The notes beneath the pieces were generated by a model. That model was not told where the DNA came from and did no database searches. It saw only the letters and a program-made list of their open reading frames with translations. A stretch of DNA of 40,444 nucleotides. Source: a virus (Duplodnaviria; Heunggongvirae; Uroviricota; Caudoviricetes). The stretch lies in IMG/VR virus record IMGVR_UViG_2579778961_000003; one strand, written 5' to 3'. Shown here in pieces: positions 18,615 through 40,444 of the stretch. The translations under genes and the position numbers were made by a program. The number at the start of each line of letters is the position of its first letter. Within the stretch, counting starts at the first letter, position 1.

Positions 18615-18644
18615 GTAAGCGTCAACGGAGCACCGTATTGACGC

Positions 18645-20258: not shown

Positions 20259-20288
20259 GACCGTTTTTATAATGCGGTCAGGAGTTTT

Positions 20289-21061: not shown

Positions 21062-21146
21062 ACTTAGATGTCCGTCTATATCAGATGGGCGTCTAAGTTA
21101 CCAATTCTCGTCTGATGGCTACATACGGCGGTCAGTTTACGCTTAC

Positions 21147-22069: not shown

Positions 22070-22071
22070 TG

Positions 22072-26818: not shown

Positions 26819-27144
26819 TATTGACCTCCGGTATTGCGGTACTGCTGTACCACTTCCAGTTTGTTATAAAGCGCGTCCAGTTTGGCCTCAATGACTGTCT
26901 GGCCACGGATATAATCCTCTCGACGGACATAATTCAGCGGTAAATCCGCTTTAAATCGCATAAATTCTTTTTCCAGCTCGCCCCAGTTGGAGGCGGATTG
27001 TTGCAGGGCCTGTTCAAGGGAGGCGAATCGTGCCGCCTGGCGTTCTTCTGTTTTACTGAACAACCATTTGGCGAGCCCTCCCACAAACCTCATGAAGGTG
27101 AGCAGAAAACTCACCACCGTCCAGAATTCAACCTGCAGTGTCAT
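26818..27144 (-). CDS. Hypothetical membrane protein (late operon)
   Basis: 108 aa ORF with N-terminal hydrophobic segment (FWTVVSFLLTFMRFVGGL). Confidence 0.4.
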   Translation of the reverse strand: MTLQVEFWTVVSFLLTFMRFVGGLAKWLFSKTEERQAARFASLEQALQQSASNWGELEKEFMRFKADLPLNYVRREDYIRGQTVIEAKLDALYNKLEVVQQYRNTGGQ

Positions 27145-27791
27145 TTCTGTAATCCTTCCCGTTCATCCAGCAGCGCGTTTATCTGGTTCCGCCAGCGACG
27201 ACATTGCCATGCGTTGTCGATGATGTTGGCGAGAACGTCACGCTGGGAGACACCCGAATCGCGTAACCGGGTGTCAGTGGTTTCAGGTTGCCCGGTCGCT
27301 GTGCCAGAGCGGGTGCCAGTGGCGGCAACTGAGTCTGAATGACCGGTGTCGACGGATGCGTTGTCATATCCGAGTGCGGCGTTGTACTGGCGCACGAAAC
27401 CGCGAGTAAACACGCACTCAATGGGATGACTCTTACCTTTTTCATCAATCCAGCGCTGTGTGACATCGTTAATTTGCCCCTGTAGTTGTTTGTTCCGGCT
27501 CTCCAGTTGAGCAATCTGCTCAAGATAACCGGCTTCAGCCCGCTGCCCGGCGGCCACCTGCTCCTGATACCGTCTGGCCCAGGCCCGCAGCGCAGCATTC
27601 TCAAGCGTTGCCTGCTCCGTTTTGTACGCGTCAAATGCTGACTGCAACTGACTTAGCGCGGTATCACCGTCACGCTTTGCAGAGTCATGACCACTTCTGT
27701 ATCCCATGGCATACAGGCCGACCAGAAAGGCATTGATAAGAATGGCCAGCAGAATGCCGCGCCACGGCAGCTTTTTAACCAGATGCCACAC
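27141..27791 (-). CDS. i-spanin (Rz-like)
   Basis: N-terminal TM (GILLAILINAFLVGLYAMG) then coiled-coil; start tentatively at GTG 27791 with GGAGG RBS; embedded lipoprotein ORF in the +1 frame. Confidence 0.65.
   Translation of the reverse strand: MWHLVKKLPWRGILLAILINAFLVGLYAMGYRSGHDSAKRDGDTALSQLQSAFDAYKTEQATLENAALRAWARRYQEQVAAGQRAEAGYLEQIAQLESRNKQLQGQINDVTQRWIDEKGKSHPIECVFTRGFVRQYNAALGYDNASVDTGHSDSVAATGTRSGTATGQPETTDTRLRDSGVSQRDVLANIIDNAWQCRRWRNQINALLDEREGLQK
27179..27445 (-). CDS. o-spanin (Rz1-like) embedded within Rz
   Basis: MKKVRVIPLSACLLAVSC lipoprotein signal followed by a proline-rich segment; start at internal ATG 27445. Confidence 0.7.
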   Translation of the reverse strand: MKKVRVIPLSACLLAVSCASTTPHSDMTTHPSTPVIQTQLPPLAPALAQRPGNLKPLTPGYAIRVSPSVTFSPTSSTTHGNVVAGGTR

Positions 27792-28515
27792 AACTGCTGC
27801 CTCCCCATGTGAGATATCGCGGTGCCAGTTCGCGCAGGATGCGCTGCGGATAATGGCGGTTCTCCCGCCAGCTGGCCGCATTGCGTCCGGCATTCACCGT
27901 GGCGACATGTCCGAACCAGCGGGTGCTGTCCAGACCTTTCTGTGATGCAAGCCGCCTGTCCCGTTGTACCCAGCCCAGACCACCGTTATAGCCCGACAGT
28001 GTCATGGCCATACGCTCGCAGTCACTGGCGGCGCTGACACGCTGCCACAGCCAGCGGTCATAGCTGACCAGCGCCCGGATAGCCCATGCCGGATTAAACG
28101 GCTCACGACTGCTCAGCATCGGTATCAACTGGCTTATCCAGTCGGCAGTGGCAGGCATGAACTGCGCCAGTCCCTGAGCGCCAGCCGGCGAGATCGCATC
28201 AGGTCGCCAGCCGCTTTCCTGATGCAGTTGCGCGGCGAAATCGGCCACCGGCGCAGACAGTCCCCATTCAAGCCGGGCATTACGGATCACATCATCGCGA
28301 TACTGCAGCGCAGCCTGCGGAGGTTGTGCTGCGCATGCCTGGCTGAAAAAGCCGCCACACCAGAGCAACATTGCGACAAAGAATACCCATGCCATATGAA
28401 CCAGAAAGGTCCCGGCGCGGACTGACAGGCGTTCGGTTCTGATGAAGACCCGAAAGGCTTCGAAAGCCAGTTTCAGGGACATGCATACAATCCAGGTGAT
28501 CTGCGGCCAGTTCAT
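27775..28515 (-). CDS. Endolysin, lytic transglycosylase (SLT domain)
   Basis: SLT motif ...QESGWRPDAISPAGAQGLAQFMP...; hydrophobic N-terminal region may be a signal-anchor; start codon uncertain (28515 or 28395). Confidence 0.85.
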   Translation of the reverse strand: MNWPQITWIVCMSLKLAFEAFRVFIRTERLSVRAGTFLVHMAWVFFVAMLLWCGGFFSQACAAQPPQAALQYRDDVIRNARLEWGLSAPVADFAAQLHQESGWRPDAISPAGAQGLAQFMPATADWISQLIPMLSSREPFNPAWAIRALVSYDRWLWQRVSAASDCERMAMTLSGYNGGLGWVQRDRRLASQKGLDSTRWFGHVATVNAGRNAASWRENRHYPQRILRELAPRYLTWGGSSCVASG

Positions 28516-28517
28516 GA

Positions 28518-28868
28518 TTAAAGCCCCATCGCAACAGCCAGGCAGACCGCTGCAACAATCAGTGCACGGCGGATTAACGCAGCAGAAAACACCAGGTGAA
28601 GGCCGGTCTGTACCGGGAAACGCCCTTCAGCCATCAGCCTGTCGTCATGTTTCAGGTACTGACCGGGACGGGCTTTGGGGAAGAGCGAACGGTCAAGCCA
28701 GTAACCCAGCACTGCTGCCAGCGTGATGAGTGCCAGCTTGTAGATCACAACAGGCAGCTGCTGTGGTGAGACCAGAGCGATGGTGCCCAGCAACAGCACT
28801 GAGGTCAGCAGCCAGCCGCTGAGGCGAGGTTTTTTAACAGGGGGAATGAATTTTTTCAGGTTTTTCAT
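28518..28868 (-). CDS. Putative holin (3 predicted TM segments)
   Basis: Start at ATG 28868 with AAGGAG RBS; three hydrophobic segments; first gene of the lysis cassette immediately upstream of the endolysin. Confidence 0.55.
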   Translation of the reverse strand: MKNLKKFIPPVKKPRLSGWLLTSVLLLGTIALVSPQQLPVVIYKLALITLAAVLGYWLDRSLFPKARPGQYLKHDDRLMAEGRFPVQTGLHLVFSAALIRRALIVAAVCLAVAMGL

Positions 28869-28998
28869 GTGTGTCTCCTTATCTGGTGGAGACAGCATCA
28901 CAAATACAGGGCGCGAAGGATTTTAAAGCGCGTTAAGAGAGCCGGGGATACGGGATGTGCAGGATAAACGATGAATTATTCACAGAGGAGAATACGAT

Positions 28999-29727
28999 AT
29001 GACGCAGACACTGAATCCGGTCATCACTGTCACCGTGTCCGGTCCTGTGGGCAGCGGTAAAAGTTACGTACTGGCGCGAATAGAGGAAGTGGTGAAACAG
29101 GAATTCGGAAACAGCGTCATTGTCGACGCCGCAGACGTGGACGGTGAGCGCCGTATGAGTGGGGATGATCTGAGCACATGGCAGAAACCACGGGCTGGCA
29201 CAGTGATCAGGCTGGAGGAATACACGGGACAGGGCCTGTTGTCATACGGCGAGGAGCGTATCTGTCGGACGAATGAGCTGCTGGATGTTATATGCCCCAC
29301 GGGCCGGCAACCCTGGATACTGCCCGATGCACTGCATGCCACCATTGCGGCACTGATGACAGTTTACGATCAGGAGCTGCTCATGAAGGAGTTACGTAAA
29401 CTCACTGGTCAGTCAACAGAATGTTGTTCGTCCCCGAAGTACGGCAAACAGGAACACATCCCGATTAACCAGCCTCCCCGGTTCTTCGACGAATACCTTC
29501 TGACACCGGAAAATAAAGCTGAGCATGAAGAGATCAAAGCGGCGTTGTTCCGGGAAATCAGGAAGATTGCTGAAATGCAACTGGAGGGCGGGCTGGACAG
29601 AGTGATGGCGAGAGGAGAATGGGCATCGCTGTTTGAAAGAGTTTCCCCGGAATTACTTCCCCTCGCACTGGCTATCGGGATTATGCAGACAGCGGATAAA
29701 CCTCACTTACGTTCATTAAACACGTAA
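28999..29727 (+). CDS. P-loop NTPase/kinase-like protein of unknown function
   Basis: Walker A motif VSGPVGSGKS at residues 13-22; GAGGAG RBS; lies in the accessory island between the late operon and the repressor. Confidence 0.6.
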   Translation: MTQTLNPVITVTVSGPVGSGKSYVLARIEEVVKQEFGNSVIVDAADVDGERRMSGDDLSTWQKPRAGTVIRLEEYTGQGLLSYGEERICRTNELLDVICPTGRQPWILPDALHATIAALMTVYDQELLMKELRKLTGQSTECCSSPKYGKQEHIPINQPPRFFDEYLLTPENKAEHEEIKAALFREIRKIAEMQLEGGLDRVMARGEWASLFERVSPELLPLALAIGIMQTADKPHLRSLNT

Positions 29728-30107
29728 CGCATAATCCGGGATACGCATTCAGCGATGACTGCATTTTCACCGGTTTTTACTGCATCCAGAAGTGACTCTT
29801 TAAATGGTACGGGCCGGGGCTGCAGAAAGGTCGGCATGGCATTGAGCAGACAGAGCGTTTTTTCCGTGAGGACGACATCAGCCGCTCCCACAGCCAGCAA
29901 CTGAGAGTAACGAATATAGCTGTTATCCCGAAGCCATATCAGCGTATCAATAAAACACCGGCACTTTTTCTGGTCGTGATCAACCTGGTCCGGGATATCG
30001 AAAAAACCAGAATAAATCAAAACCTGAGGTGCCGGATGCGTGTTCAGTAATCGGCAGAATATTTTGCCGGTGAGTACATAAAAATCATCATTTAAGGAGT
30101 GCATCAT
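29703..30107 (-). CDS. Hypothetical protein
   Basis: 134 aa ORF convergent with and overlapping the 3' end of the P-loop gene by 25 bp; weak RBS; lower-GC region. Confidence 0.4.
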   Translation of the reverse strand: MMHSLNDDFYVLTGKIFCRLLNTHPAPQVLIYSGFFDIPDQVDHDQKKCRCFIDTLIWLRDNSYIRYSQLLAVGAADVVLTEKTLCLLNAMPTFLQPRPVPFKESLLDAVKTGENAVIAECVSRIMRYVFNERK

Positions 30108-30321
30108 GAATCCCCGATTAACGTTAACAGAACATCAGCGCCGTGCTGAAGCAGTGAACAATGTTCTGGAAGATATTATCCGGTTATACCGCGGAGAACT
30201 GAGTGTCTGTCGTGCCGCTTTTCATTTTCAGGGAATACAAAAGCAGTTTGATACTTCTGTTTTTGCAGAAGGTATTACTTATGCCCTGGACCGGATAAGG
30301 TCAGAAAATCGCCCCGGATAA
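30106..30321 (+). CDS. Hypothetical small protein
   Basis: 71 aa ORF with strong AAGGAG RBS 6 nt upstream of the ATG. Confidence 0.5.
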   Translation: MNPRLTLTEHQRRAEAVNNVLEDIIRLYRGELSVCRAAFHFQGIQKQFDTSVFAEGITYALDRIRSENRPG

Positions 30322-30377
30322 TCCCTAAACCACATTAACAGAAATCCCGCCATCCCTGCCGCATCATGAAAGAACGA

Positions 30378-30405
30378 CCAGCCCGGCACCCGAAAGCCGG
30401 GCTGG
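30378..30405. other. Perfect 10-bp stem hairpin (possible terminator or RNA structure)
   Basis: ccagcccggc-acccgaaa-gccgggctgg; no strong T-tract on the plus strand, modest T-rich run on the minus strand. Confidence 0.4.
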
Positions 30406-30511
30406 TCATCGCCCCACAGGAATGCGCTGTGAGCCGACCAAGGTTCAGTCAGTCTCGCGAGACCTGACCAGACTGCCATATTTTTTAATAATTGTAAAAG
30501 GCTTGCAGATT

Positions 30512-31276
30512 ATGAAAATGCAGACATTACCCATCGTGCCGTGGATTGGTGGCAAACGCCGCCTTGCAAAACACATTCTGCCGCTGTTTCCGGCGCATGA
30601 ATGTTATGTGGAGCCGTTTTGTGGGGCAGCAGCGCTCTATTTTCTTAAGACACCCGGCAAGATCGAAGTCATCAATGATATCAACGGTGAACTGGTGAAT
30701 CTGTACCGGGTGGTAAAGCATCACCTGGAAGAATTTGTCCGCCAGTTCAAATGGGCGCTGGTCAGCCGTCAGATCTACAAATGGCTGCAGATCACCCCGG
30801 AAGAAACACTGACGGATATCCAGCGTGCGGCACGGTTCTACTACCTTCAGAAGCAGGCGTTTGGCGGCAAGGTGGCAGAGCACAGCTTCGGTACCTCCAC
30901 CACATCCCCGCCACGCTTCAACCTGCTACGTATTGAAGAAGAACTGTCAGCGGCACACCTGCGGCTTTCCAGAACAGTCATAGAACACATGGACTGGCAA
31001 CAGTGCATTGAGCGTTATGATCGTCCGCACACGCTGTTCTACTGCGACCCACCGTACCTGGGTACGGAAGGCTATGGTGTGGATTTTCCTGAAGGGAACT
31101 ACTCGCGGCTGGCAGAGCTGGCCCGGTGCATCAGAGGAAAAATGATAATTTCGGTGAACGACATCCCGCAGATGCGCGAGGTGTTCACTGGACTGAACAT
31201 ACAGACAGTGAATATCAACTACAGTCTGGCGGGTAAACCCACGCCGCGCCGTGAACTGCTAATCTGCAACTTCTGA
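30512..31276 (+). CDS. DNA N6-adenine methyltransferase (Dam-like, orphan)
   Basis: Motif I EPFCGAAALYF and motif IV DPPY (LFYCDPPYLGT); no adjacent endonuclease candidate; start chosen at ATG 30512 rather than ORF-track 30422. Confidence 0.9.
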   Translation: MKMQTLPIVPWIGGKRRLAKHILPLFPAHECYVEPFCGAAALYFLKTPGKIEVINDINGELVNLYRVVKHHLEEFVRQFKWALVSRQIYKWLQITPEETLTDIQRAARFYYLQKQAFGGKVAEHSFGTSTTSPPRFNLLRIEEELSAAHLRLSRTVIEHMDWQQCIERYDRPHTLFYCDPPYLGTEGYGVDFPEGNYSRLAELARCIRGKMIISVNDIPQMREVFTGLNIQTVNINYSLAGKPTPRRELLICNF

Positions 31277-31283
31277 AACAAAA

Positions 31284-31306
31284 CCGGAAAGCACAATGCT
31301 TTCCGG
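31284..31306 (-). terminator. Probable terminator of the repressor transcript
   Basis: Hairpin ccggaaagc-acaat-gctttccgg; on the minus strand it is followed by TTTTGTTTC. Confidence 0.5.
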
Positions 31307-31392
31307 TAAACCAAACAACTTCCACTATGTCACTGGCGATGTTTTCTGAAAGCATCCAGATCAACCACCTGTCCTTTGTGTCCGGGTCAGTA

Positions 31393-31749
31393 TCAGCCTG
31401 CGATTTTTCCTGGTTTTGGCTGAGTATAGAATCGCCCAATCTCAAGAAATGAGCGTTGTTGGTCTGGTGTCATGTCGTCAAAAGTATCTATTAGTTTTTG
31501 TTTTTCTGGGGAAATTTGATTCTGGTTTCTAGTCATACCATCTGTGCTCATTCCAGTGAGCAACCAATTTACATCAACATTAAACTCTTGATGCATCTTT
31601 AACAGAAACTCCCCTCCAGGCATCGCCTTTCCATTTTCAATCTGACTGATACCACCATTAGAAATACCTAAACGAGCTGCAAATTCTCTCTGGTTCAACC
31701 CTGCTTTCTTCCTCACAGAAATAACGCGCTCTCCTATATCTTTGCTCAT
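31393..31749 (-). CDS. Prophage repressor (HTH XRE family; Mu c-equivalent)
   Basis: N-terminal HTH (LNQREFAARLGISNGGISQIENGK), divergently transcribed from the early operon, operator palindrome in the intergenic region. Confidence 0.75.
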   Translation of the reverse strand: MSKDIGERVISVRKKAGLNQREFAARLGISNGGISQIENGKAMPGGEFLLKMHQEFNVDVNWLLTGMSTDGMTRNQNQISPEKQKLIDTFDDMTPDQQRSFLEIGRFYTQPKPGKIAG

Positions 31750-31789
31750 AAAAGTGAATCTCTATCTTGATATGCTCATAATTATGAGC
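31743..31789. promoter_or_regulatory. Operator/early promoter region with 18-bp perfect palindrome
   Basis: TGCTCATAATTATGAGCA at 31772-31789 and a TGCTCATA half-site at 31743-31750 overlapping the repressor start codon. Confidence 0.6.
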
Positions 31790-31842
31790 AATAATCTAAC
31801 ACATATAAGGCAAACATCATTGCATCAACAAAGGAGACAACG

Positions 31843-32031
31843 ATGACTGCAGAACAAGTCAAAGCTCTCTTCCGCCAGCGCGGGATCACTTTCACCCGCT
31901 GGGCAGAAGAAAACGGCTACAACCGCAATGAGGTATACCGCGTTCTCAACGGGCAGACCAAAGCCCGTTACGGTAAATCCCATGAAATCGCCGTGAAGTT
32001 GGGACTGAAATCAACAGCTCAGGCGGCCTAA
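31843..32031 (+). CDS. Small DNA-binding early regulator (Ner/Cro-equivalent)
   Basis: 62 aa basic protein, first rightward gene after the operator, AAAGGAG RBS; assignment by position rather than clear Ner motif match. Confidence 0.5.
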   Translation: MTAEQVKALFRQRGITFTRWAEENGYNRNEVYRVLNGQTKARYGKSHEIAVKLGLKSTAQAA

Positions 32032-32077
32032 ATATTTTGAGTCTTTGTAAAAGGTTATCACATATCGCAAAAGAGGT

Positions 32078-32392
32078 ATGCAGATGAGTAAGACGAATGT
32101 TTCAAGCTCCGGCAGTCGCATCCTCCGGGTACTCAAAGCGCTGCGCGGTCATGCCCTGAACGGTATTTCTAACGGTGAACTGGCGACAGCACTGCACGAG
32201 TCACCGGCAAACATCAACCGGGCACTCAACACCCTCATTGAAGAAGGGCTGGCTCTGAAACTGGAGAACGGACGTTTTGCACCGGGCATCCAGTTACTGC
32301 AGATCGCCATGGCCCACAGTAACGAGATGGCACGTGCACAGGATCGTATTAACGAAATTAACCAACGTGTCATTTCAGGTAGTCGTTTGTAA
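32078..32392 (+). CDS. Winged-helix DNA-binding protein (putative transcriptional regulator)
   Basis: 104 aa; HTH-like segment ISNGELATALHESPANINRALNTLIEEGL; AAGAGG RBS. Confidence 0.45.
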   Translation: MQMSKTNVSSSGSRILRVLKALRGHALNGISNGELATALHESPANINRALNTLIEEGLALKLENGRFAPGIQLLQIAMAHSNEMARAQDRINEINQRVISGSRL

Positions 32393-32402
32393 GGAGTAAT
32401 CA

Positions 32403-33323
32403 ATGGGACGTACCAAATCACCGATTAACACTGAACTGAACGCCGATGTACCGCTGTCGGATGATCTCAACGTCAGCCTGAATGCCATGACACAGCATCG
32501 CATGGAGATCATGCAGCAGTTTGGTGATGGACTGCCTTATGAACGTGAACGCATCGTTCACGAAGCACGTTTTTATATGGCGCAGAGTGCTGAATCTATG
32601 TTGGAAGCGGGTAAGCGGCTGATCATCTTAAAAGAAAATGAACCGCATGGTGATTTCACAAATATTCTGGAAAACGACCTCGGATTAGCACCACAGGTAG
32701 CTCGTCGCATGATGCAGGCCAGCGTGAAATTTCTCGGCAATGGAGATGAACAGCCAAAACGCTCAGCGCTGAGCGTTTTGGGAAAAACCAAGTTATATGA
32801 ACTGATGGTTCTGGATGACGAAGAACTCGACGCATTAGCTGATGGTGGAACCGTCGCCGGTGCAACGCTTGATGATATTGATCGCATGACCAGCCGCGAA
32901 CTGAAGGCCGCCCTGCGTGAAGCGCGCGAAACCAACGCAGCTCAGCAACAGGTGCTTGCCGGAAAGGACGAAAAAATCAACGAACTGGCCACAAAACTGG
33001 AGAAGAAATCGCGCCTGCAACCTCCGCCGCCAGACGAAGAACTGAAAAAATTGCGGGCGGAAGTGACGGCATTAGCGGTTGAGGCCGAATCGGCTATCGC
33101 CGTCCGGCTGTCCAGTGTTTTTGAGACCCTGTGTGAATACTGCACCAAAAACATGATCGATACCCCCAGAGATTTCATGGCCGGTCTGGTCTGCCAGATT
33201 GAACGCAGTGTTCATGCATTACGTGAGACGTTTGACCTTGAGGCCGCTCCATCGGGTAACGATGCCCCCGCCTGGCTGACCGAACCGGAACCTGAAATCA
33301 ACCGACCGGAGGATATGCAGTAA
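32403..33323 (+). CDS. Hypothetical early protein
   Basis: 306 aa ORF with acidic/coiled-coil regions between regulator genes and transposase. Confidence 0.5.
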   Translation: MGRTKSPINTELNADVPLSDDLNVSLNAMTQHRMEIMQQFGDGLPYERERIVHEARFYMAQSAESMLEAGKRLIILKENEPHGDFTNILENDLGLAPQVARRMMQASVKFLGNGDEQPKRSALSVLGKTKLYELMVLDDEELDALADGGTVAGATLDDIDRMTSRELKAALREARETNAAQQQVLAGKDEKINELATKLEKKSRLQPPPPDEELKKLRAEVTALAVEAESAIAVRLSSVFETLCEYCTKNMIDTPRDFMAGLVCQIERSVHALRETFDLEAAPSGNDAPAWLTEPEPEINRPEDMQ

Positions 33324-33640
33324 TGAATACGAATAACACACAAAATACCCTGATGGACAGCCCGGAGGCACTGGGGCACGCACTGTGTAATCTGCTGCCG
33401 GAGATGGTGCAGGGTTTCCGCGTGGTGACCCCTTCCGGTGAAATCTGCGTACCCGCACAGGAGACGCACCCGTTTGTACTGACGATGGAGGTGATGCTGA
33501 TGCAGCAGATAAGACGTCTGCAGAATCAGTCAGCATTACGCCCGGTAGTTGCACCGCAACCGGTAAATACCGTGGTGAAAACCTGCGATGGCGAAACACT
33601 GTGCGACCTCGCCAGAAAAATTGCCGCCAGAATCGGATAA
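33323..33640 (+). CDS. Hypothetical early protein
   Basis: 105 aa ORF, start overlaps upstream stop. Confidence 0.4.
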   Translation: MNTNNTQNTLMDSPEALGHALCNLLPEMVQGFRVVTPSGEICVPAQETHPFVLTMEVMLMQQIRRLQNQSALRPVVAPQPVNTVVKTCDGETLCDLARKIAARIG

Positions 33641-33655
33641 CAGGGAAGACAAGCT

Positions 33656-35425
33656 ATGACCCCGGCACTGACTGAAAAACTGGTTGAAACAGCCCGCGCG
33701 GCACGTGACGCGGGGCATGGTAAACGCGGTGCAATATACGACGCTGCCTGTGCTGAACTTGGCATGTCCCGCGCCACTCTGCTGCGCAGGCTGAAGGAGG
33801 TATCTGTGACTGATAAACGCAAAAAACGCGCCGATGCCGGGCGCAGCGCCCTGACCCGCGACGAAGCCGCGCTGATATCTGCCACACTGCGTGAGGCCAC
33901 CCGCAAGAACGGTAAGCGTCTCTATTCCATCGCAGATGCAGTGGAAACCCTGCGGGCTAACGGCTTTATCACCGCAGGCAGAACAGATGAAACCACCAGT
34001 GAGTTTTTCCCGTTGTCTGAAGATGCCATCAGCCGTGCTCTGCGTAACTATGGCCTGCACCCGGAACAACTGGATGCCCCTGCACCACATACCGAAGTGG
34101 CCAGTCTGCATCCCAATCATGTCTGGCAGATTGACGCCTCACTCTGCACGCTTTACTACCTGAGCAATGGACATAAAGGGCTGCAGGTGATGGACAGCGC
34201 GAAGTTCTACAAGAACAAGCCCGCTAACCTTGCCCGTATCGCCAGTGACCGCGTGTGGAGTTACGAGATTACCGACCATGCCAGCGGCTGGATTTACGTT
34301 GAGTATGTGACGGGCGCGGAATCAGGTGAGAACCTGTGTTCTGTGCTTATCAACGCCATGCAGGAGCGTGGCGGCGCAGACGTGCTGCACGGCGTGCCGA
34401 AAATACTCTATCTCGACCCCGGCTCGGCAAACACCGCGGGTATGACGAAAAACATGTGCCGCTCACTGGGCATCGACCTGATAGCGCACAAGCCGCATAA
34501 CGCCCGCGCCACCGGACAGGTGGAAAAGGCGCGTGACATTATCGAACGCAAGCTGGAGCCGGGTCTGAAGTTCCGGCCGGTTCACAGTCTGGAAGAACTC
34601 AACGCGCTGGCCGCGAAATGGCGCAGCCACTTTAACGCCACGGCTGTTCACAGCCGCCACGGTAAAACCCGCACGGATATCTGGCTGAAGATTACTGCTG
34701 AGCAGCTGAAAAAAGCGCCTTCCGTTGAGGTATGTCGTGAACTGGCTGTGGCGGCACCAGAACTCCGCAAAGTCACGCCAAAACTTCGTGTCTCGTTCCG
34801 GGGCACTGAATTTGACGTATCAACGGTACCGGGCGTACTGGTTGGTGAAAAACTGATGATTACCCGTAACCCATGGCGCAGCGATGTGGCACAGGTGGTT
34901 CTGACCGGTGAGGACGGCCACGAGACGTTCTTCCTGGTCGAAGAGGTCAGAAAGAACGAGTTTGGCTTTGCTGAAGGCGCGGCGGTATTTGGCGAAAGTT
35001 ACAAAGCCCTGCCGGAAACCCCGGCACAGATGGCGGCAAAAGAAACCGAAGCGCTGGTTACCGGTACAGACAACGCCGCAGATGCAGCCGCCGCACGCAA
35101 GGCGAAGGCGCTGCCGTTCGGCGGGCGGCTTGACCCGTATAAACATATCGACGACACCACACTTCCGGCCTATATGCCGAAGCGTGGTCAGGCCTCTGAC
35201 GTACGCGGGCCGCGCACTGAACAACGTCCCATGACTCATGTGGAGGCCGCGAAAGCCCTGCGCGATAAGTTCAGCGCCGACGGCCTTACCTGGACGCCGG
35301 AACATTACCGCCAGTTAACGGCACAGTACCCGGACGGCGTACCGGAAGCCGCACTGGATGAAGTCATGGCCACGCTGACCACACCGGCCCGCAGCAGTGT
35401 TATCAGCATTGTTAACGGCAACTGA
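33656..35425 (+). CDS. DDE transposase (Mu A-like)
   Basis: 589 aa; N-terminal DNA-binding region; integrase-core-like HPNHVWQIDAS segment; followed by an AAA+ B-like gene. Confidence 0.8.
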   Translation: MTPALTEKLVETARAARDAGHGKRGAIYDAACAELGMSRATLLRRLKEVSVTDKRKKRADAGRSALTRDEAALISATLREATRKNGKRLYSIADAVETLRANGFITAGRTDETTSEFFPLSEDAISRALRNYGLHPEQLDAPAPHTEVASLHPNHVWQIDASLCTLYYLSNGHKGLQVMDSAKFYKNKPANLARIASDRVWSYEITDHASGWIYVEYVTGAESGENLCSVLINAMQERGGADVLHGVPKILYLDPGSANTAGMTKNMCRSLGIDLIAHKPHNARATGQVEKARDIIERKLEPGLKFRPVHSLEELNALAAKWRSHFNATAVHSRHGKTRTDIWLKITAEQLKKAPSVEVCRELAVAAPELRKVTPKLRVSFRGTEFDVSTVPGVLVGEKLMITRNPWRSDVAQVVLTGEDGHETFFLVEEVRKNEFGFAEGAAVFGESYKALPETPAQMAAKETEALVTGTDNAADAAAARKAKALPFGGRLDPYKHIDDTTLPAYMPKRGQASDVRGPRTEQRPMTHVEAAKALRDKFSADGLTWTPEHYRQLTAQYPDGVPEAALDEVMATLTTPARSSVISIVNGN

Positions 35426-35435
35426 GGAGGGAAAC

Positions 35436-36602
35436 ATGCTGGTACTGAAGCAGCAACTGAAAGAGGCCCGTATTCCACAGGCGGTGGTGGCGAGAGCTGT
35501 CGATGTTTCTGAGGCCACGCTGGCCCAGATTGTGAATCATAACGCGTGGCCCCGCACCAGCCCCGGAGAAGTGCGCCGGCGTCTTGCGTCCTGGCTGGAA
35601 AGTCAGGGGATTGATACAACGAAGAGTTTTGATGCTGTACAGGGCGCGGCCACGCCCCGTACAGCGGGTACCACAGATAAAACGAGCCTCAGTGAGGAAG
35701 AGAATATGTTACTCAAAAAACAGGTGTTATTTCCAGCAACCAAAAAAGCGTTTGGTCTTTTCCGTGACCCGTTCGCCGACGAAGCCATGCAGGGTTCTGA
35801 TGATGTGTTCACCACCCCGGACATTCGCTACGTGCGTGAGGCGCTGTACCAGACAGCCCGTCATGGTGGGTTTATGGCCGTCATCGGTGAGTCCGGTGCG
35901 GGTAAATCCACGCTGCGCCGCGACCTGACTGAACGTATCAACCGCGAGAATGCGCCGGTAATTGTTATCGAGCCATACATCATCGCTATGGAAGACAACG
36001 ATGTGAAAGGGAAAACCCTGAAGGCAGCAGCTATTGCCGAAGCCATTATCAGTACCATCGCACCACTGGAAAGCATCAGACGCAGTCAGGACGCCCGTTT
36101 TCGCCAGTTGCATCGCGTCCTGAAAGACAGCAGCCAGGCGGGGTTCAGCCACGTTCTGGTGATTGAGGAGGCCCACAGTCTGCCCATTCCGACACTGAAA
36201 CACCTCAAACGCTTTTTTGAGCTGGAGTCCGGTTTCAAAAAACTGCTGTCCATCGTGCTGATTGGCCAGCCGGAACTGGCGACAAAACTGTCTGAACGCA
36301 ATATGGAAGTCCGTGAAGTCGTTCAGCGCTGTGAGGTGGTCGAACTTCTGCCTCTGGACAATAACCTTGAAGAATTTCTGACGTTCAAACTGCAACGGGC
36401 CGGTAAACAGCTGACGGACATTATGGACGCCGGTGCAGTGGATGCCATACGTGCCCGCCTGAGCAATCCGGGAAGTCACCGTAAAAATATGGTCAGCCTG
36501 CTGTATCCGCTGGCCGTCAGTAACCTGGTAATAGCCGCCATGAATCTGGCCGCTGAAATCGGGGTTCCACAGGTCAACGCTGACGTTGTCAAAGGGGTTT
36601 AA
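35436..36602 (+). CDS. Transposition ATPase (Mu B-like, AAA+)
   Basis: Walker A GESGAGKST, N-terminal HTH-like region; start placed at ATG 35436 with GGAGGG RBS. Confidence 0.75.
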   Translation: MLVLKQQLKEARIPQAVVARAVDVSEATLAQIVNHNAWPRTSPGEVRRRLASWLESQGIDTTKSFDAVQGAATPRTAGTTDKTSLSEEENMLLKKQVLFPATKKAFGLFRDPFADEAMQGSDDVFTTPDIRYVREALYQTARHGGFMAVIGESGAGKSTLRRDLTERINRENAPVIVIEPYIIAMEDNDVKGKTLKAAAIAEAIISTIAPLESIRRSQDARFRQLHRVLKDSSQAGFSHVLVIEEAHSLPIPTLKHLKRFFELESGFKKLLSIVLIGQPELATKLSERNMEVREVVQRCEVVELLPLDNNLEEFLTFKLQRAGKQLTDIMDAGAVDAIRARLSNPGSHRKNMVSLLYPLAVSNLVIAAMNLAAEIGVPQVNADVVKGV

Positions 36603-36604
36603 TA

Positions 36605-36874
36605 ATGAAATCCACCACAGGTATCAACCAGCAAATCAGCAAAGTGCAGTCAGCCATTATGGCGCTTAAGGCGACGAACACGGATGTACAAAGCATCACC
36701 ATCAGGGGTAACAAACCTGTCATCCGCGTTTCCCGGAGTGCGCATTGCATGCGCATGCTTGAGCAGGGAAAGGCCTGTTATCTGTATACCGGACATGACC
36801 ACAGGGGATATTTCCGTCAGGGCGTTTTCGAACTGCACGGCTGTCGCGTCGTGTGGCCGGAATCTTTGTGGTAA
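36605..36874 (+). CDS. Hypothetical early protein
   Basis: 89 aa ORF immediately after B-like gene. Confidence 0.4.
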   Translation: MKSTTGINQQISKVQSAIMALKATNTDVQSITIRGNKPVIRVSRSAHCMRMLEQGKACYLYTGHDHRGYFRQGVFELHGCRVVWPESLW

Positions 36875-36901
36875 TCAGCACAACTGGAGAAATCATAAAA
36901 A

Positions 36902-37432
36902 ATGGCAAAAAGTACAAAAGGTGCAAAACGTATCAAGGCCGCAGCAGCACTCTGGGTGCCGGGGACACGTGAAGAGGTCATTGAGGGAATCAGACTACTC
37001 GGTGACGCACAACGTGAACTGGTCAGGGCTGAAACAGAAATGAATGACGCCATTGGCGATATCACCGCACGTTATGCCCCGCTCACCGAGAGCCTGAAAA
37101 AACGCATGGCCGAACTGCAGTCCGGTATTCAGACATGGTGTGAGGCACACCGTGATGAACTGACCGGCAACGGGAAGGTGAAGTTCGCTAACCTCACCAC
37201 CGGCGAGGTGCAGTGGCGAAACCGTCCGCCATCAGTCAGTATCCGTGGGGCGGATAATGTTATTGAATTACTGAGACGTCTGGGGCTTGAGCGCTTTATT
37301 CGTGTAAAAGAGGAAATAAATAAAGACGCTATCCTGAATGAAAAAGAGGCCGTGAAAAATATTCCCGGTATTTCCATTAAAAGCGACATTGAGGATTTTT
37401 CAATAATTCCTTTTGAGCAGGATGTGCAGTAA
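36902..37432 (+). CDS. gam: Host-nuclease inhibitor Gam-like protein
   Basis: 176 aa, size and coiled-coil character of Mu Gam; located in semi-essential early region after B. Confidence 0.65.
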   Translation: MAKSTKGAKRIKAAAALWVPGTREEVIEGIRLLGDAQRELVRAETEMNDAIGDITARYAPLTESLKKRMAELQSGIQTWCEAHRDELTGNGKVKFANLTTGEVQWRNRPPSVSIRGADNVIELLRRLGLERFIRVKEEINKDAILNEKEAVKNIPGISIKSDIEDFSIIPFEQDVQ

Positions 37433-37529
37433 ACACACCACGTTAATTATTTAATAAAAACATTTTCTTTTTTATTCCGACGTCAGCGCCGCGGGCTTCT
37501 GCACGCCGGAAACAGAGGAGAATTAAATC

Positions 37530-37724
37530 ATGATATTTAAATGTATTCAGTGCGAGAGGGATATAACAGCCCTGCGTTTTCACAGCGCCATCGCCGTGAT
37601 GTCCGGTAAATACCACATCCCTGCGGTACGCGTCACCCTGGTCTGCCCGTACTGCAGCCAGCATTTTTCGGCAGACGTGCCCGTCATGGAATTCTCCCGC
37701 CCTGACAGGGAGGACTCGCAATGA
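37530..37724 (+). CDS. Small zinc-ribbon protein
   Basis: Two CxxC pairs (CIQC ... CPYC) in 64 aa. Confidence 0.45.
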   Translation: MIFKCIQCERDITALRFHSAIAVMSGKYHIPAVRVTLVCPYCSQHFSADVPVMEFSRPDREDSQ

Positions 37725-37993
37725 TTACCCCACAGGAAGCACGACAGCGCACCCGAACCCTTGTTGAACACTATGTCAACGAGTGTGAATGCCGCGACCT
37801 CACCGATGTGAAGCACGTCCTGACGGCGCTAATCAGCATGGCCACACAGGCCATTGTGGCGACCAACGGAAAGGAGGCTGCCCTGCAGGTACTGATGAAC
37901 ACACTCACCCACACGGCAGAGCATGAGGTGCCGTACCGGATGGAAACCACTGCAGAAGGCGGCCTGCACATCACCGTCAGCCGGAAGCACTGA
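37721..37993 (+). CDS. Hypothetical early protein
   Basis: 90 aa ORF, start overlaps upstream stop. Confidence 0.4.
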   Translation: MITPQEARQRTRTLVEHYVNECECRDLTDVKHVLTALISMATQAIVATNGKEAALQVLMNTLTHTAEHEVPYRMETTAEGGLHITVSRKH

Positions 37994-38002
37994 GGGCGCG
38001 GC

Positions 38003-38299
38003 ATGACACGAAACACCGAACTCACCCGCACCGCCCTCTACCGTCTGGCCCTGCAGCGTTTCGGGCCGGACGCACAGGCCCTGAAACTGGCAGAAGAGGC
38101 CGCTGAACTGGCGGCCAGTGCCGCCCGCAACCTGAACGGACAGGGCAGCGAAAGTGACCTCGCGGCAGAGCTGGCAGACGTGGAAATCATGACAGAGCAA
38201 CTGCGCCTTCAGGGGATGGACCGGCTGATTGACTTCCACAAACAGAAAAAACTGGAACGTCTGGCTGCACGACTGGGCGTGATTTACACGAACGAGTAA
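38003..38299 (+). CDS. Small MazG-like nucleotide pyrophosphohydrolase (putative)
   Basis: 98 aa, EEAAELA...ELADVEIM pattern reminiscent of MazG-like helices; assignment tentative. Confidence 0.4.
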   Translation: MTRNTELTRTALYRLALQRFGPDAQALKLAEEAAELAASAARNLNGQGSESDLAAELADVEIMTEQLRLQGMDRLIDFHKQKKLERLAARLGVIYTNE

Positions 38300-38313
38300 C
38301 CGGGAGGCATTCA

Positions 38314-38529
38314 ATGGCTGACATACTCAGGGAAATCACCGCATGGACACTGATTCTTACTGGCCTGGCGACATGCCTCAGTGCGGGGGCAGCCCTGGCT
38401 GCCCTGCTGATGCACATAACAACACAGTGGTTATGGGAAAAGCTTAAAGCAGCATACAGCCTGAAAGAGCTGTCCGACGCTGTCCGGGCATGGAAACGGC
38501 AGAAAAATACCGGAGATACAGAACAATGA
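38314..38529 (+). CDS. Small membrane protein
   Basis: 71 aa with one hydrophobic segment (WTLILTGLATCLSAGAALAALL). Confidence 0.4.
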   Translation: MADILREITAWTLILTGLATCLSAGAALAALLMHITTQWLWEKLKAAYSLKELSDAVRAWKRQKNTGDTEQ

Positions 38530-39209
38530 CAGACCAGAATAAACACATTGAGAAACTGAAAAAGTTGCTGGCGCTGGCCGCATCCGGCAACCCGCACGAG
38601 GCCGCTCTGGCACTGCGCCGAGCCCGTAAACTGATGGATGTTCACGGCATCACACATTCCGACATTGCTATGAGTGATATTGATGAAACCATCAGTCACT
38701 ACTGGCCGACAGGCAGTCTCCGTCCACCGCGCTACATGCTGGGCCTGATGAACATCATCCGCGAGGTATTTGGTGTTAACTCCATCATTCACCCCGGCAC
38801 GCATCCGTCTGTGGGGTTCTACGGCAACCGGGAACGTGCGGCACTGGCTGCATACACCTGGGAAGTGCTGGCCCGTCAGCTGAAAAAGGCGCGTCAGCAG
38901 TATATCAGTGCACAGAACAAAAGAATAAAAACCGCCACCCGCACCAGCCGTGGAGACCAGTTTGCCGAAGGCTGGGTGCTGGCCGTTATCAGTGAAATAC
39001 AGTCCTTTGCCCTGACCGATGATGAGCGTGAACTGATGCAGCAGTGGCTGGAACATAAATACCCGCAGACGCAAACCACCAGGGCGCGTAAACCGGGAAG
39101 AAGCCGCAATGGCGACGCCTCGCGCTATGCGGGGTTTCGTGAAGGGCAGAACGTCAGACTGCACCGCCCGGTCAGTGGGCAGGAACAACAGAAACTGGAG
39201 GCCAGATGA
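38526..39209 (+). CDS. Hypothetical early protein (DUF2786-like N-terminus)
   Basis: N-terminal IEKLKKLLALAASGNPHEAALALRRA pattern; start placed at ATG 38526. Confidence 0.45.
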   Translation: MTDQNKHIEKLKKLLALAASGNPHEAALALRRARKLMDVHGITHSDIAMSDIDETISHYWPTGSLRPPRYMLGLMNIIREVFGVNSIIHPGTHPSVGFYGNRERAALAAYTWEVLARQLKKARQQYISAQNKRIKTATRTSRGDQFAEGWVLAVISEIQSFALTDDERELMQQWLEHKYPQTQTTRARKPGRSRNGDASRYAGFREGQNVRLHRPVSGQEQQKLEAR

Positions 39210-39436
39210 TTACGCTATCAGGTAAAAGCCGGAAATTAAAAGCCTGCCGAATATCTGCCAGATACCTTTTTGCCCGCGCCTTTTTTAAGAACGTCAGGCC
39301 GGGGATCACAATTGGTGTTATTGCCGGACGCGAACAGGTTGAAAAATACATGTCAGGTGCATGGTGGAATAACGACCCTGTCATTGCTGCCCGTAATATT
39401 CATATCGAATGGGGAGGTATTCAGAATGACTACTGA
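39206..39436 (+). CDS. Hypothetical protein
   Basis: 76 aa ORF. Confidence 0.3.
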   Translation: MITLSGKSRKLKACRISARYLFARAFFKNVRPGITIGVIAGREQVEKYMSGAWWNNDPVIAARNIHIEWGGIQNDY

Positions 39437-39632
39437 AACCATTGTCTGTTTTCTTTTCTGGTATATGTACGCAGGATCATGCAGCGCAAGACTTCATCGT
39501 TCCCTGGGCTATGGCAGGCACTACGACACCGCGCATTACATCCTGTACATGACCGCCGTCATGTTGTTCTGGCCAGTCACCCTGCCAGCTGCAACCGACA
39601 TTGTTGCCGACAGACTGAAAAAAAGGAGATGA
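39426..39632 (+). CDS. Small hydrophobic protein
   Basis: 68 aa, two hydrophobic segments. Confidence 0.35.
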   Translation: MTTETIVCFLFWYMYAGSCSARLHRSLGYGRHYDTAHYILYMTAVMLFWPVTLPAATDIVADRLKKRR

Positions 39633-39633
39633 T

Positions 39634-40083
39634 ATGCAGAAAAAACGCCTGATACAGCTTATCCATATTGCCCGTAATGAACTGGGTATGGATGAAGACA
39701 CCTACCGCCAGATGTTACAGGGGCTGACCGGTAAAGCCTCAACCAAAGGAATGGATACCACACAACTAAACTGCGTGCTGGAATCCATGAAAAAGAAAGG
39801 CTTTCGCGTTAAACCAGCCAGAAAAGCCAGCTCCGGTTTACCGCTTGATAACCATCCGCAGTCCAGGAAAATTCGTGCGCTATGGCTTGAAATGGCTGCT
39901 GCCGGCATTGTTCGTGACCGTTCAGAAAATGCATTAGCGAGGTGGATCAAGCGGGAAACGGGCATCAGCGCCCTGCGCTGGCTCAGTACTGAACAGGCAA
40001 GCAGTGTTATTGAGAAACTGAAGAAGTGGCAGCGCAGAGCTGCGGGAGTCAAACATGAGCGACCTGAATCAGTTTCGAAGTAA
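39634..40083 (+). CDS. GemA-like regulatory protein (Mu gp16-like)
   Basis: 149 aa; N-terminal LIQLIHIARNELGMDEDTYRQML pattern; located immediately upstream of the Mor-like gene as in Mu. Confidence 0.55.
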   Translation: MQKKRLIQLIHIARNELGMDEDTYRQMLQGLTGKASTKGMDTTQLNCVLESMKKKGFRVKPARKASSGLPLDNHPQSRKIRALWLEMAAAGIVRDRSENALARWIKRETGISALRWLSTEQASSVIEKLKKWQRRAAGVKHERPESVSK

Positions 40084-40444
40084 GGGGCCGGAACTCCTGG
40101 TGGAACTGGCACAGCATACCTCTGAGACCGTTCGCGAGATTATTGATATTGAGCCCGAAGTTGCCGACCAGATTGGTCAGGCCGTCGCGAACCGAATGAT
40201 GCAGGTCTGGGGCGGGCAAAACGTTTATTTCCCGATGGGCATGGTATGGAAGGTCAGTCAGCGCGACCGGGAAATCTTCAGGGAGTTTAACGGACGCAAC
40301 CACCACGAACTGGCCCGCAAATTTGGTGTTTCGCTTCAGTGGGTCTACAGCGTGGTTAAGCGGGTAAGAAAAGAAGAACTGGATCGGATGCAGGGCAAGC
40401 TATTTGCTGATGAACCCGATGCAGATACGGAGAAAAAAGAGTAA
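40055..40444 (+). CDS. mor: Mor/C-family transcriptional activator (Mor-like)
   Basis: 129 aa with GGQNVYFPMG ... FNGRNHHELARKFGVSLQWVYSVV, matching the Mor/C family pattern as recalled; complete ORF ends at window end. Confidence 0.7.
   Translation: MSDLNQFRSKGPELLVELAQHTSETVREIIDIEPEVADQIGQAVANRMMQVWGGQNVYFPMGMVWKVSQRDREIFREFNGRNHHELARKFGVSLQWVYSVVKRVRKEELDRMQGKLFADEPDADTEKKE

Follow-up and report, generated by a model that had tools for sequence, protein, structure and literature searches.

In the BcepMu group of transposable phages, which carries a Tn552-type transposase, genes are arranged in two clusters, and in BcepMu itself the bottom strand carries genes 1-13 and the top strand genes 17-52, lysogeny control being placed where the two clusters meet (PMC2771037). 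This group contains Burkholderia phage BcepMu (NC_005882), phiE255, and the SalMu, PhotoMu and ChromoMu prophages (GenBank genus Bcepmuvirus). Genomes like that of Pseudomonas phage B3 (Beetrevirus, including JBD25, JD18, H71 and others) are set apart by an early operon that is inverted compared with that of Mu and D3112 (PMC5977238). A divergent layout is thus already known from published work on BcepMu-like and B3-like transposable phages.

The window, meaning the whole 40,444-nt stretch analyzed, consists of E. coli aroA followed by a single complete-ended, BcepMu-like transposable prophage that starts at 1462, ends 163 bp beyond the window and lies in the start of ycaL (Table 1). Relatives of this prophage were present in 645 of 5426 complete E. 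coli genomes. Positions 28000-40444 were 100% identical to phage PhiKM, whose genus, Bcepmuvirus, is a GenBank filing and not an ICTV-threshold result because the E. coli prophage and BcepMu share too little nucleotide identity for megablast, which returned no match between them. Gene identities were tested with Pfam and with BLAST against BcepMu and Mu, and Pfam assigned an rve transposase, AAA_22 ATPase, Phage_Mu_Gam, GemA, Mor, HTH_3 repressor and D12 methylase.

Table 1. Features of the prophage and its left host flank, in window coordinates
Feature	Position	Strand	Evidence or remark
Host aroA, left flank	1..1284	+	427-aa ORF; RefSeq annotation of same locus
Left target-site duplication copy, GAAGAA (6 bp)	1456..1461		Junction sequences
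Prophage left end	1462..1539		Begins 5'-TG; repeated GCGATAAATG motifs
Gin-like serine DNA invertase gene	1540..2112	-	Pfam Resolvase + HTH_7
Invertible tail-fibre segment	2176..3786		229-nt inverted repeats, 2176-2404 and 3558-3786
Silent alternative fibre C-terminus cassette	2184-2645	+	Within invertible segment
Tail-fibre assembly gene	2652-3266	-	Within invertible segment
Tail and head structural genes	3266..18625	-	tblastn, 31-76% identity, monotonic order
Candidate late promoter 4	6619..6651	-	Between gpV and gpW; TTAATATC-N19-AATACT
Candidate late promoter 3	12970..13002	-	Upstream of tail assembly chaperone gene (12607-12942)
ISEc23 (IS66 family)	18615..21146	-	Pfam; 99.8% identical to ISEc23
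ISEc23 tnpC	18645-20258	-	Pfam
ISEc23 tnpB	20289-20639	-	Pfam
ISEc23 tnpA	20636-21061	-	Pfam
Candidate late promoter 2	21427..21459	-	Upstream of protease/scaffold gene; position of Mu P_I
Head morphogenesis and lysis genes	21611..28868	-	Colinear with BcepMu gp31 back to gp21
Holin gene	28518-28868	-	In head/lysis block
Inter-arm space	28869-31842		Four accessory ORFs and repressor gene
Candidate late promoter 1	28894..28926	-	Upstream of holin gene; position of Mu P_lys; TTAAAATC-N19-GATGCT, preceded by CTTAA-N5
Variable accessory island	28999..31276		Pfam, PHROGs, PADLOC scans
D12 Dam-type methylase	30422-31276	+	Pfam; in accessory island
CI-type HTH repressor gene (c analogue)	31393-31749	-	Pfam HTH_3, Phage_CI_repr
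Putative early promoter Pe	31767..31795	+	TTGATA-17-AATAAT, sigma-70-like
Early operon	31843..40444	+	Pfam; BLAST
ner-like gene	31843-32031	+	Early operon
IclR-type HTH gene	32084-32392	+	Early operon
DUF3102 gene	32403-33323	+	Early operon
rve transposase gene	33656-35425	+	Pfam rve; early operon
ExeA-type AAA+ ATPase gene	35436-36602	+	Early operon
gam	36902-37432	+	Early operon; small ORFs follow
DUF2786 gene	38526-39209	+	Early operon
gemA	39634-40083	+	Early operon
mor, Mor/C-family activator gene	40055..40444	+	Pfam Mor, E 1.3e-43

A first-pass annotation had described early and late modules that diverge, unlike those of Mu, and our analysis of the strand layout confirmed this. All 17 early-arm genes were on the plus strand, as proposed, and 35 of the 36 late-arm ORFs (28868 down to 1540; lysis-head-tail) were on the minus strand, so that the claim of an entirely minus-strand late arm held except for the plus-strand ORF at 2184-2645. 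Both arms point away from the accessory island, as had been noted, and the repressor gene, which shares the late-arm orientation, sits with the island between them. The AT skew changes sign at ~28 kb, and cumulative GC skew stops falling at the same place. Three island ORFs (242 aa, plus; 134 aa, minus; 71 aa, plus) received no assigned function from Pfam, PHROGs or PADLOC, and island content differs in other prophage copies.

Both arms were colinear with reverse-complemented BcepMu, with 34 window proteins in order at 31-76% identity, the late arm running monotonically on the BcepMu plus strand and the early arm on its minus strand. The two phages share two divergent clusters, Mor at the extreme end, a repressor/ner-like switch at the interface, TG...CA ends, an rve/Tn552-type transposase (68% identical to BcepMu gp09) and an ExeA-type ATPase (59%). 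From the interface outward, both carry variable genes, holin, SLT endolysin, Rz, TerS, TerL, portal, F, G, protease/scaffold and capsid genes, and then a P2-type tail. In contrast to BcepMu, the E. coli phage encodes a Gam of Mu type (62% identical to that of Mu) with no BcepMu hit, carries a Dam methylase island where BcepMu has gp18-20, and has no homologue of the gp53 acyltransferase, and its repressor is barely related to BcepMu gp17 (23%). It also has a Gin invertase and an invertible tail-fibre segment, whereas BcepMu is reported to be without a Gin-type invertible tail-fibre segment (PMC2771037).

The B3-like phages share a homologous transposase (~56%), with ATPase, DUF3102, IclR-HTH, GemA and Mor in the same order on one strand and repressor, holin, SLT endolysin and Mu-type head genes on the opposite strand, but B3 has a siphovirus tail module and a com/methylase cluster inside the late arm. 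The annotations of BcepMu, B3 and KP12 place Mor at the very end and the repressor next to the lysis genes. Furthermore, transposase and TerL were on opposite strands in every phage record among the matches listed for both, and the hosts of these records were E. coli, Klebsiella, Ralstonia, Burkholderia and Pseudomonas. These findings make it very probable that divergent clusters are the ancestral, family-wide layout of phages with rve/Tn552-type transposases, a family of BcepMu-like myoviruses and B3-like siphoviruses, and not a rearranged Mu. Of the two explanations offered in the first-pass annotation, a phage family with an inverted early arm is upheld by colinearity with BcepMu, by the same arrangement in B3 and by the published layout, and a large inversion uncoupling Mor/C is not. 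Since the divergent layout is normal and published for its relatives, this common E. coli prophage is ordinary.

Measured against Escherichia phage Mu (NC_000929), the inversion is real, since the matches of both arms fall on the plus strand of Mu; in Mu only c departs from a colinear arrangement, whereas here the immunity/early module is inverted relative to the late genes. Mu matches were limited to gam, gemA (36%), mor, TerL (49%), portal, F, G, one baseplate protein, a short tail-fibre segment and Gin (76%). Both phages are transposable and temperate, with the early order c/ner-like, transposase, ATPase, gam, gemA and mor, a G-type invertible fibre segment and TG...CA ends. The genes earlier labeled A and B are analogues of MuA and MuB but not homologues by BLASTP and tblastn, and the transposase had no BLASTP similarity to MuA. 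The E. coli prophage further differs from Mu in its P2-type rather than Mu-type tail, its SLT endolysin with holin, its lack of mom, and its single Mor/C-family gene versus two in Mu. The target duplication is 5 bp in Mu and 6 bp here.

Junction sequences placed the prophage start at 1462 rather than at ~1455, and the TG...CA ends are flanked by the 6-bp GAAGAA instead of a predicted 5-bp TCACA. The left GAAGAA copy falls within the first codons of ycaL (ATG at 1454), and the rebuilt empty site matched the best-listed genomes in a single piece at 100%, with 1326 records at an identity of at least 99%. Extension past 40444, as had been suggested, located the right end (...GTCTAATCA) after 163 bp, beyond which lies host ycaL-cmk-rpsA. 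The same left-end sequence, with repeated GCGATAAATG motifs as putative transposase-binding sites, adjoins three different host sequences, and three insertion sites (ycaL, hycE and yehY) showed TG...CA ends, 6-bp duplications and an identical layout.

The late activator gene, which had been expected beyond 40444, was found inside the window as the final gene before the prophage right end. This gene gave the sole six-frame hit to the Mor/C HMM, and its product was 54% identical to BcepMu gp01, 30% to Mu Mor and 37% to Mu C.

Four candidate late promoters, one of them in the 28869..28998 interval proposed for such an element, share the motif yTTAA-N6-TTAAwATC 19 bp upstream of a -10-like hexamer, and all are intergenic, equally spaced and on the minus strand. 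Because the pattern was derived from these four regions, counting it within the window is circular; scans of BcepMu and KP12 are independent. A PWM built from the four motifs ranked four syntenic intergenic BcepMu sites in the top 6 of ~73,000 positions (11495, 18822, 24542 and 30784, syntenic to candidates 1 to 4, at ranks 5, 3, 6 and 1), with a fifth site, upstream of gp19, also in the top 6. In KP12, the top 4 hits were the syntenic sites.

Considering the family-wide layout together with these motifs, we propose a cascade in which promoter activity, operator function and Mor binding are predicted from sequence. In a lysogen, the CI-type repressor would bind a perfect 18-bp palindrome (TGCTCATAATTATGAGCA; 31773-31790), a putative operator that occupies the Pe spacer and extends one base into the -10 hexamer. 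Upon induction, Pe would drive a single ~8.6-kb rightward early operon encoding the ner-like protein, two accessory DNA-binding proteins, transposase, AAA+ ATPase, Gam, GemA and Mor, in that order. As the last operon product, the single Mor/C activator would diffuse and presumably act in trans on four opposite-strand late promoters upstream of the holin, protease/scaffold and tail chaperone genes and gpW. With an activator of this kind, working in trans, the cascade would be indifferent to how the modules are oriented to each other, and nothing would be uncoupled.

It is possible, though unlikely, that the layout is the family norm but that the late genes are not activated by Mor from the four motif sites, for example because one promoter ahead of the holin gene, or read-through from a repressor-side promoter, drives their expression, with the motif serving as a nucleoid-protein site or a transposition or packaging signal. 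Mor activation at these sites is deduced from DNA sequence, the motif is A+T-rich and partly palindromic, and the -10 hexamer of the gpW candidate lies 7 nt from the annotated start codon, which means that the message is leaderless, the start codon is wrong or the element is not a promoter. Against this, the motif keeps a fixed 19-bp spacing to the hexamer, occurs on the late strand only and only in gaps matching Mu P_lys and P_I and at tail-operon boundaries, and is retained at syntenic BcepMu sites although the flanking intergenic DNA has no nucleotide-level match. B3 does not share the motif, but it has its own putative late-promoter dyad (TTTTCG-N6/7-CGAAAAGC) upstream of the holin, protease and tape-measure genes, which fits activator-site co-evolution.

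A recent large inversion in a colinear Mu-type prophage, separating Mor/C from the late operon and probably crippling late expression, would account for the opposite orientations of early and late homologues relative to Mu, and this copy is indeed damaged elsewhere by ISEc23. We consider this very improbable, as hundreds of E. coli genomes share the layout, it is repeated at the three insertion sites sequenced, and relatives from Klebsiella, Ralstonia, Burkholderia and Pseudomonas have it too. An inversion including an end would bury a junction and a duplication copy inside the inverted block, but both ends adjoin the expected host DNA, with 6-bp direct repeats flanking the TG...CA termini. 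Moreover, an ancestor of Mu type is ruled out by the transposase, which is not MuA, and the single mor gene is intact and accompanied by conserved late-promoter motifs.

That the window is chimeric, or that it takes one arm each from two prophages lying side by side or nested, is scarcely credible. In GenBank, PhiKM is a permuted "partial genome" that contains a sequencing gap and joins tail fibre to the Mor end, so assemblies of this element can be messy. However, the inter-arm junction is unbroken in hundreds of complete, independent genomes and hence no assembly artefact, and 28000-40444 is in one piece at 100% in independent complete chromosomes. Every module including mor is single-copy, and one end pair with one target duplication lies between host aroA to the left and ycaL-cmk-rpsA to the right. 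Neither a second TG...CA end set nor a second late module, such as a plus-strand one past 40444, was found beside the element.

Within the late arm, the segment from 3266 to 18625 is colinear with BcepMu gp52 back to gp32 and encodes P2-type fibre, baseplate, tape measure, tube and sheath proteins, a Mu-type connector and major capsid protein, and the C-terminal part of the protease/scaffold protein. The segment on the other side of ISEc23 carries G, F, portal, TerL, TerS, two small genes, an Rz-like gene, SLT endolysin and holin. ISEc23, which was not present in the other prophage copies compared, splits the head protease/scaffold gene and has the 8-bp direct repeat TGACCATC on both flanks, and because of this insertion this copy of the prophage may fail to complete the lytic cycle.

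The divergent arrangement described in the first-pass annotation, with early genes on the plus strand and late genes on the minus strand, was confirmed by our strand tally, with corrections of detail. In the ORF listing, a long minus-strand run of genes extended to approximately 28.9 kb, genes between 31.8 kb and the window end were on the plus strand, and the AT skew changed sign where the minus-strand run gives way to the plus strand. All gene coordinates translated cleanly, with identities assigned by Pfam (see the table), and 17 of 17 early-arm genes were on the plus strand. The late arm (28868-1540) opens with genes for a holin (28518-28868) and an SLT endolysin, continues with those for terminase, portal, capsid, sheath, baseplate, and fibre, and closes with a serine invertase gene (1540-2112). 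This arm had been read as lying wholly on the minus strand, which is true of 35 of its 36 ORFs; the exception is a silent fibre cassette on the plus strand (2184-2645). Between the arms are four accessory ORFs, one of which encodes a D12 Dam-type methylase, and a CI-type repressor gene (31393-31749, minus strand). Positions 1-1284 are aroA.

A tblastn comparison of all window proteins yielded 34 matches in Burkholderia phage BcepMu (NC_005882), in which the minus-strand late arm mapped monotonically to the plus strand from 32895 down to 11555 and the plus-strand early arm mapped monotonically to the minus strand from 9086 down to 368. Protein identities were mostly 45-68%; values were 68% for the transposase (over 581 aa, gp09), 59% for the ATPase (gp08), 54% for Mor, 63% for TerL, 76% for the sheath, 52% for the holin, 61% for the SLT endolysin, 45% for the capsid, and 55% for gpJ. 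By the same method, matches in Mu (NC_000929) were limited to Gam, GemA, Mor, TerL, portal, F, G, one baseplate protein, a short tail-fibre segment, and Gin, and both arms mapped to the Mu plus strand. Together with the BcepMu colinearity, this mapping indicates an inversion with respect to Mu and an arrangement exactly like that of BcepMu.

We also compared transposase and TerL orientation across phages by tblastn against 50,697 phage records; wherever a record was listed by both searches, the transposase and TerL genes lay on opposite strands. These records included Escherichia coli phages PhiKM and Phi06_2974 B, a Klebsiella contig (KP12), Ralstonia YO107_2, Burkholderia phages BcepMu, phiE255, and vB_* phages, and Pseudomonas phages B3, JBD25, JD18, H71, H72, Fc02, Fc22, Ps56, Ps59, UMP151, U3, and others. 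In annotated BcepMu, KP12, and B3, Mor is the outermost gene, with the repressor adjoining the accessory and lysis genes. BcepMu-like phages have been described as having two divergent clusters, regulators and transposase versus lysis, head, and tail, with lysogeny control at the interface, and their transposase has been assigned to the Tn552-IS1604 family (PMC2771037). The divergent layout is thus explicit in the literature, for which we drew on secondary descriptions (PMC2771037, PMC2628397, PMC5977238), and is standard for transposable phages of the BcepMu-like and B3-like groups. Of the two explanations first offered for it, an early arm inverted across the phage family was therefore right, being borne out by the BcepMu synteny and the opposite strands in all listed records, and it was already known.

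The prophage itself is also already in GenBank, since megablast matched positions 28000-40444 at 100% identity to Escherichia phage PhiKM (PQ738613), filed there under the genus Bcepmuvirus. Sequence related to this stretch occurred in 645 of 5426 complete E. coli genomes (~12%), 493 of which had at least 80% of it in one place, and chromosome NZ_CP023844 carries the same element between aroA and ycaL-cmk-rpsA. The PhiKM record is a permuted partial genome without both prophage ends and the invertase region, in which the tail-fibre gene is joined to the Mor end via ~500 bp (20234-20739) annotated as "Fe2+ ABC transporter permease." Packaged host DNA probably bridged this junction during assembly. 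Transposable phages (proposed "Saltoviridae") replicate by transposition, and random host DNA flanks their virion DNA.

The left junction of the prophage reads ...CACATGAAGAA / TGATGCGCC..., and the right junction, 163 bp past the window end and read from an identical prophage copy, reads ...GTCTAATCA / GAAGAATACTAAA. The reconstructed empty site matched at 248 of 248 nt (100%) as a single piece in the best-listed E. coli genomes, with 1326 records at ≥99% identity and 5165 genomes covering at least 80% of the query. Insertions in hycE (strain NCTC9022) and yehY (AVS0750) had the same layout, with duplications ATCAGC and GCAGGG, so that ycaL, hycE, and yehY represent three insertion sites with identical ends and 6-bp duplications; the yehY site settled an ambiguous junction T as a phage base. 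The termini are 5'-TG...CA-3' with a 6-bp target duplication. The empty site and the three junction pairs set the left end at 1462, not where the prophage start was first placed, and replace the previously proposed 5-bp duplication TCACA (1450-1454), which is host DNA upstream of the ycaL ATG. The second end expected past 40444 was found with its CA terminus, 163 bp beyond, but without the TCACA flank. Other insertions were in LysR-family, SWIM, and prpR genes. Multiple insertion sites with target duplications, seen here as integrated copies only, are consistent with replication by transposition.

The insertion lies inside the first codons of ycaL (window 1454-1462; 20589-20614 in the identical copy), splitting the ATG from the remaining gene, and RefSeq keeps an intact ycaL, whose start, apparently an ATT codon, falls within the right end of the phage. 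Most E. coli copies among the sampled records are at this aroA/ycaL site, and one predominant insertion site suggests clonal inheritance.

The second explanation held that a large inversion had uncoupled Mor/C from the late operon. This reading is wrong, because the layout is family-wide, the ends are intact, and the activator is predicted to work in trans. Intact terminal sequences flanked by direct repeats also argue against an inversion including an end since integration. A second late module past 40444 is ruled out by the host genes found beyond the right end, and the activator gene that had been sought there lies inside the window as the Mor gene. The layout itself is not new, and its discovery value is small. 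The practical use is for annotation of a family present in ~12% of complete E. coli genomes, for which Mu-templated annotation misplaces the ends, the duplication, and the late activator; the corrected map supplies precise ends, the 6-bp duplication, a putative operator, and four candidate late promoters.

Its transposase type, ATPase, gene layout, termini, lysis cassette, and head and tail modules all place the element in the BcepMu-like group. As in BcepMu, the transposase is an rve-core Tn552/IS1604-type DDE enzyme rather than MuA (Pfam rve), and an ExeA/GspA-like AAA+ ATPase, the MuB analogue, is encoded directly downstream (Pfam AAA_22). Further likenesses are the two divergent clusters with repressor and ner-like genes at the interface, the 5'-TG...CA-3' termini with a short target duplication and many insertion sites, and a lysis cassette (holin, SLT-type endolysin, Rz/Rz1) followed by a Mu-type head and a P2-type contractile tail, the latter label coming from annotation names rather than direct comparison with P2. 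Neither transposase nor ATPase had a match in Mu by tblastn or BLASTP (transposase against MuA, E 0.48, not significant). In the Mu-like early order proposed initially, Gam, GemA, and Mor match Mu; the transposase and ATPase are not MuA/MuB homologues. Mu genes except c run one way, with early, middle, and late genes colinear, and Mu uses a two-step Mor then C cascade, whereas the window has divergent arms, a single Mor/C-family ORF, and a 6-bp target duplication. Lacking MuA/MuB, colinearity, and a second activator, and with a 6-bp duplication, the element is not a Muvirus.

Formal genus placement is uncertain, because nucleotide identity to BcepMu was below megablast detection: BcepMu was absent among the matches of the 12.4-kb query (28000-40444). 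Current ICTV genus practice is ~70% nucleotide identity over the genome, a level not reached in this comparison. Relative to BcepMu, the window phage has a Mu-type Gam, a Gin invertase with an invertible fibre segment, a Dam-methylase island, and a barely related repressor (23%). Gam was 62% identical to Mu Gam and had no tblastn match in BcepMu. Gam and Gin suggest module exchange between an enterobacterial BcepMu-like lineage and Mu.

To survey activators, we used an HMM of four sequences (Mu Mor, Mu C, BcepMu gp01, and the window protein), which detected one ORF each in the window, BcepMu, and KP12 and no second Mor/C paralogue among six-frame window ORFs of at least 40 aa. These results imply one activator instead of the Mor and C pair of Mu; the window protein is about equally distant from both (30% identity to Mu Mor, 37% to Mu C). 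Late-arm intergenic gaps shared a common architecture in which yTTAA-N6-TTAAwATC is separated by exactly 19 nt from a downstream -10-like hexamer (GATGCT, CAAACT, CATACT, or AATACT at the four sites). The pattern TTAAWATC-N19-VAWRCT occurred four times in the window, always intergenic and on the minus strand, with none expected in shuffles, a count that is circular because the pattern was derived from those same regions. One candidate site falls within 28869-28998, where a late promoter had been anticipated.

Coordinates of early-arm genes, candidate late promoters, and related sites in BcepMu and B3
Feature	Coordinates	Strand	Basis or remark
ner-like HTH	31843-32031	+	Pfam
IclR-type HTH	32084-32392	+	Pfam
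DUF3102	32403-33323	+	Pfam
rve transposase	33656-35425	+	Pfam
AAA_22/ExeA-type ATPase	35436-36602	+	Pfam
Gam	36902-37432	+	Pfam
DUF2786	38526-39209	+	Pfam
GemA	39634-40083	+	Pfam
Mor	40055-40444	+	Pfam
Candidate late promoter	28926-28894	-	Motif, upstream of holin gene
Candidate late promoter	21459-21427	-	Motif, upstream of protease/scaffold gene
Candidate late promoter	13002-12970	-	Motif, upstream of tail chaperone gene
Candidate late promoter	6651-6619	-	Motif, between gpV and gpW
BcepMu site, V/W gap	30784		PWM rank 1
BcepMu site, upstream of gp32	18822		PWM rank 3; rank 2 is the reverse-strand reading of this site
BcepMu site, upstream of gp19	10463		PWM rank 4; extra, not syntenic
BcepMu site, upstream of gp21 holin	11495		PWM rank 5
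BcepMu site, upstream of gp41	24542		PWM rank 6
B3 dyad sites	about 11565-11590, 19835-19860, 26815-26840		Different dyad

As an independent test, a PWM from the four window sites was scanned over BcepMu (~73,000 positions), and all four syntenic sites fell within the top six positions; in KP12, the top four positions were the syntenic sites. The PWM had no match in intergenic regions upstream of late genes in Mu and B3, indicating a motif confined to the BcepMu-like group. In phage B3, the holin, protease, and tape-measure genes are instead preceded by a dyad of another sequence, TTTTCG-N6/7-CGAAAAGC, probably the counterpart of the late-promoter activator site. These observations fit a Mor-type activator acting in trans, with activator and sites co-evolving, which would make early-arm orientation irrelevant to late control. 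We tentatively consider, as a rather doubtful proposal, a one-step late switch in BcepMu-like phages, in which four (possibly five) late promoters would respond directly to a single Mor/C-family activator, whose gene closes the early operon, through an element conserved from E. coli to Burkholderia, the B3-like dyad having co-evolved. Judged against secondary descriptions, the late-promoter motif and one-step cascade are the sole possibly unreported detail and, if not yet described, would be a modest addition to what is known of phage regulation. A weaker motif match at ~30335-30390 (plus strand; CTAAACCACATTAACAGA-N19-CATCAT, window PWM rank 5) precedes the Dam methylase gene, itself on the plus strand, and is reminiscent of Mu's C-dependent mom promoter, although the match may be due to chance.

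At the switch, a sigma-70-like promoter (TTGATA-17-AATAAT, 31767-31795) contains a perfect 18-bp palindrome, TGCTCATAATTATGAGCA (31773-31790), that fills the spacer and overlaps the first base of the -10 hexamer, making it a plausible operator for the divergent repressor. Here and for the late arm, we infer promoters, operators, and binding from sequence. The holin to ner-like interval is a variable slot (28999-31749 in the window, 29376-32006 in the NCTC9022 copy, 29811-32441 in the AVS0750 copy, and 24342-26949 in KP12). The window slot holds three unknown ORFs, the Dam methylase, and a 118-aa repressor; the NCTC9022 and AVS0750 slots each hold three ORFs, one labelled "ABC transporter ATPase," together with a 153-aa HTH protein distinct from that repressor; and KP12 has yet another gene set. 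These differences point to different immunity types on one backbone. When island ORFs were compared with PADLOC, the methylase alone matched (Type II or orphan methyltransferase), and no defence system was recognised. A strong hairpin with an 11-bp stem and T-runs between the convergent dam and repressor genes (31283-31307) is probably a bidirectional terminator.

An ISEc23 element (IS66 family, tnpA/tnpB/tnpC) at 18615-21146, 99.8% identical to annotated copies and flanked by the 8-bp direct repeat TGACCATC (18607-18614 and 21147-21154), splits the head protease/scaffold gene, so this prophage copy is probably defective. ISEc23 was at the matching position in none of the 5426 complete E. coli genomes. 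The Gin-like invertase, 76% identical to Mu Gin, adjoins a tail-fibre segment with 229-nt inverted repeats at its two ends (2176-2404 and 3558-3786; whole region 1540-3786), within which the one plus-strand ORF of the late arm is a silent alternative fibre C-terminus. Gin and this segment form a Mu G-type host-range switch, in contrast to BcepMu, which is reported without one. Three other prophage copies had differing fibre cassette arrangements.
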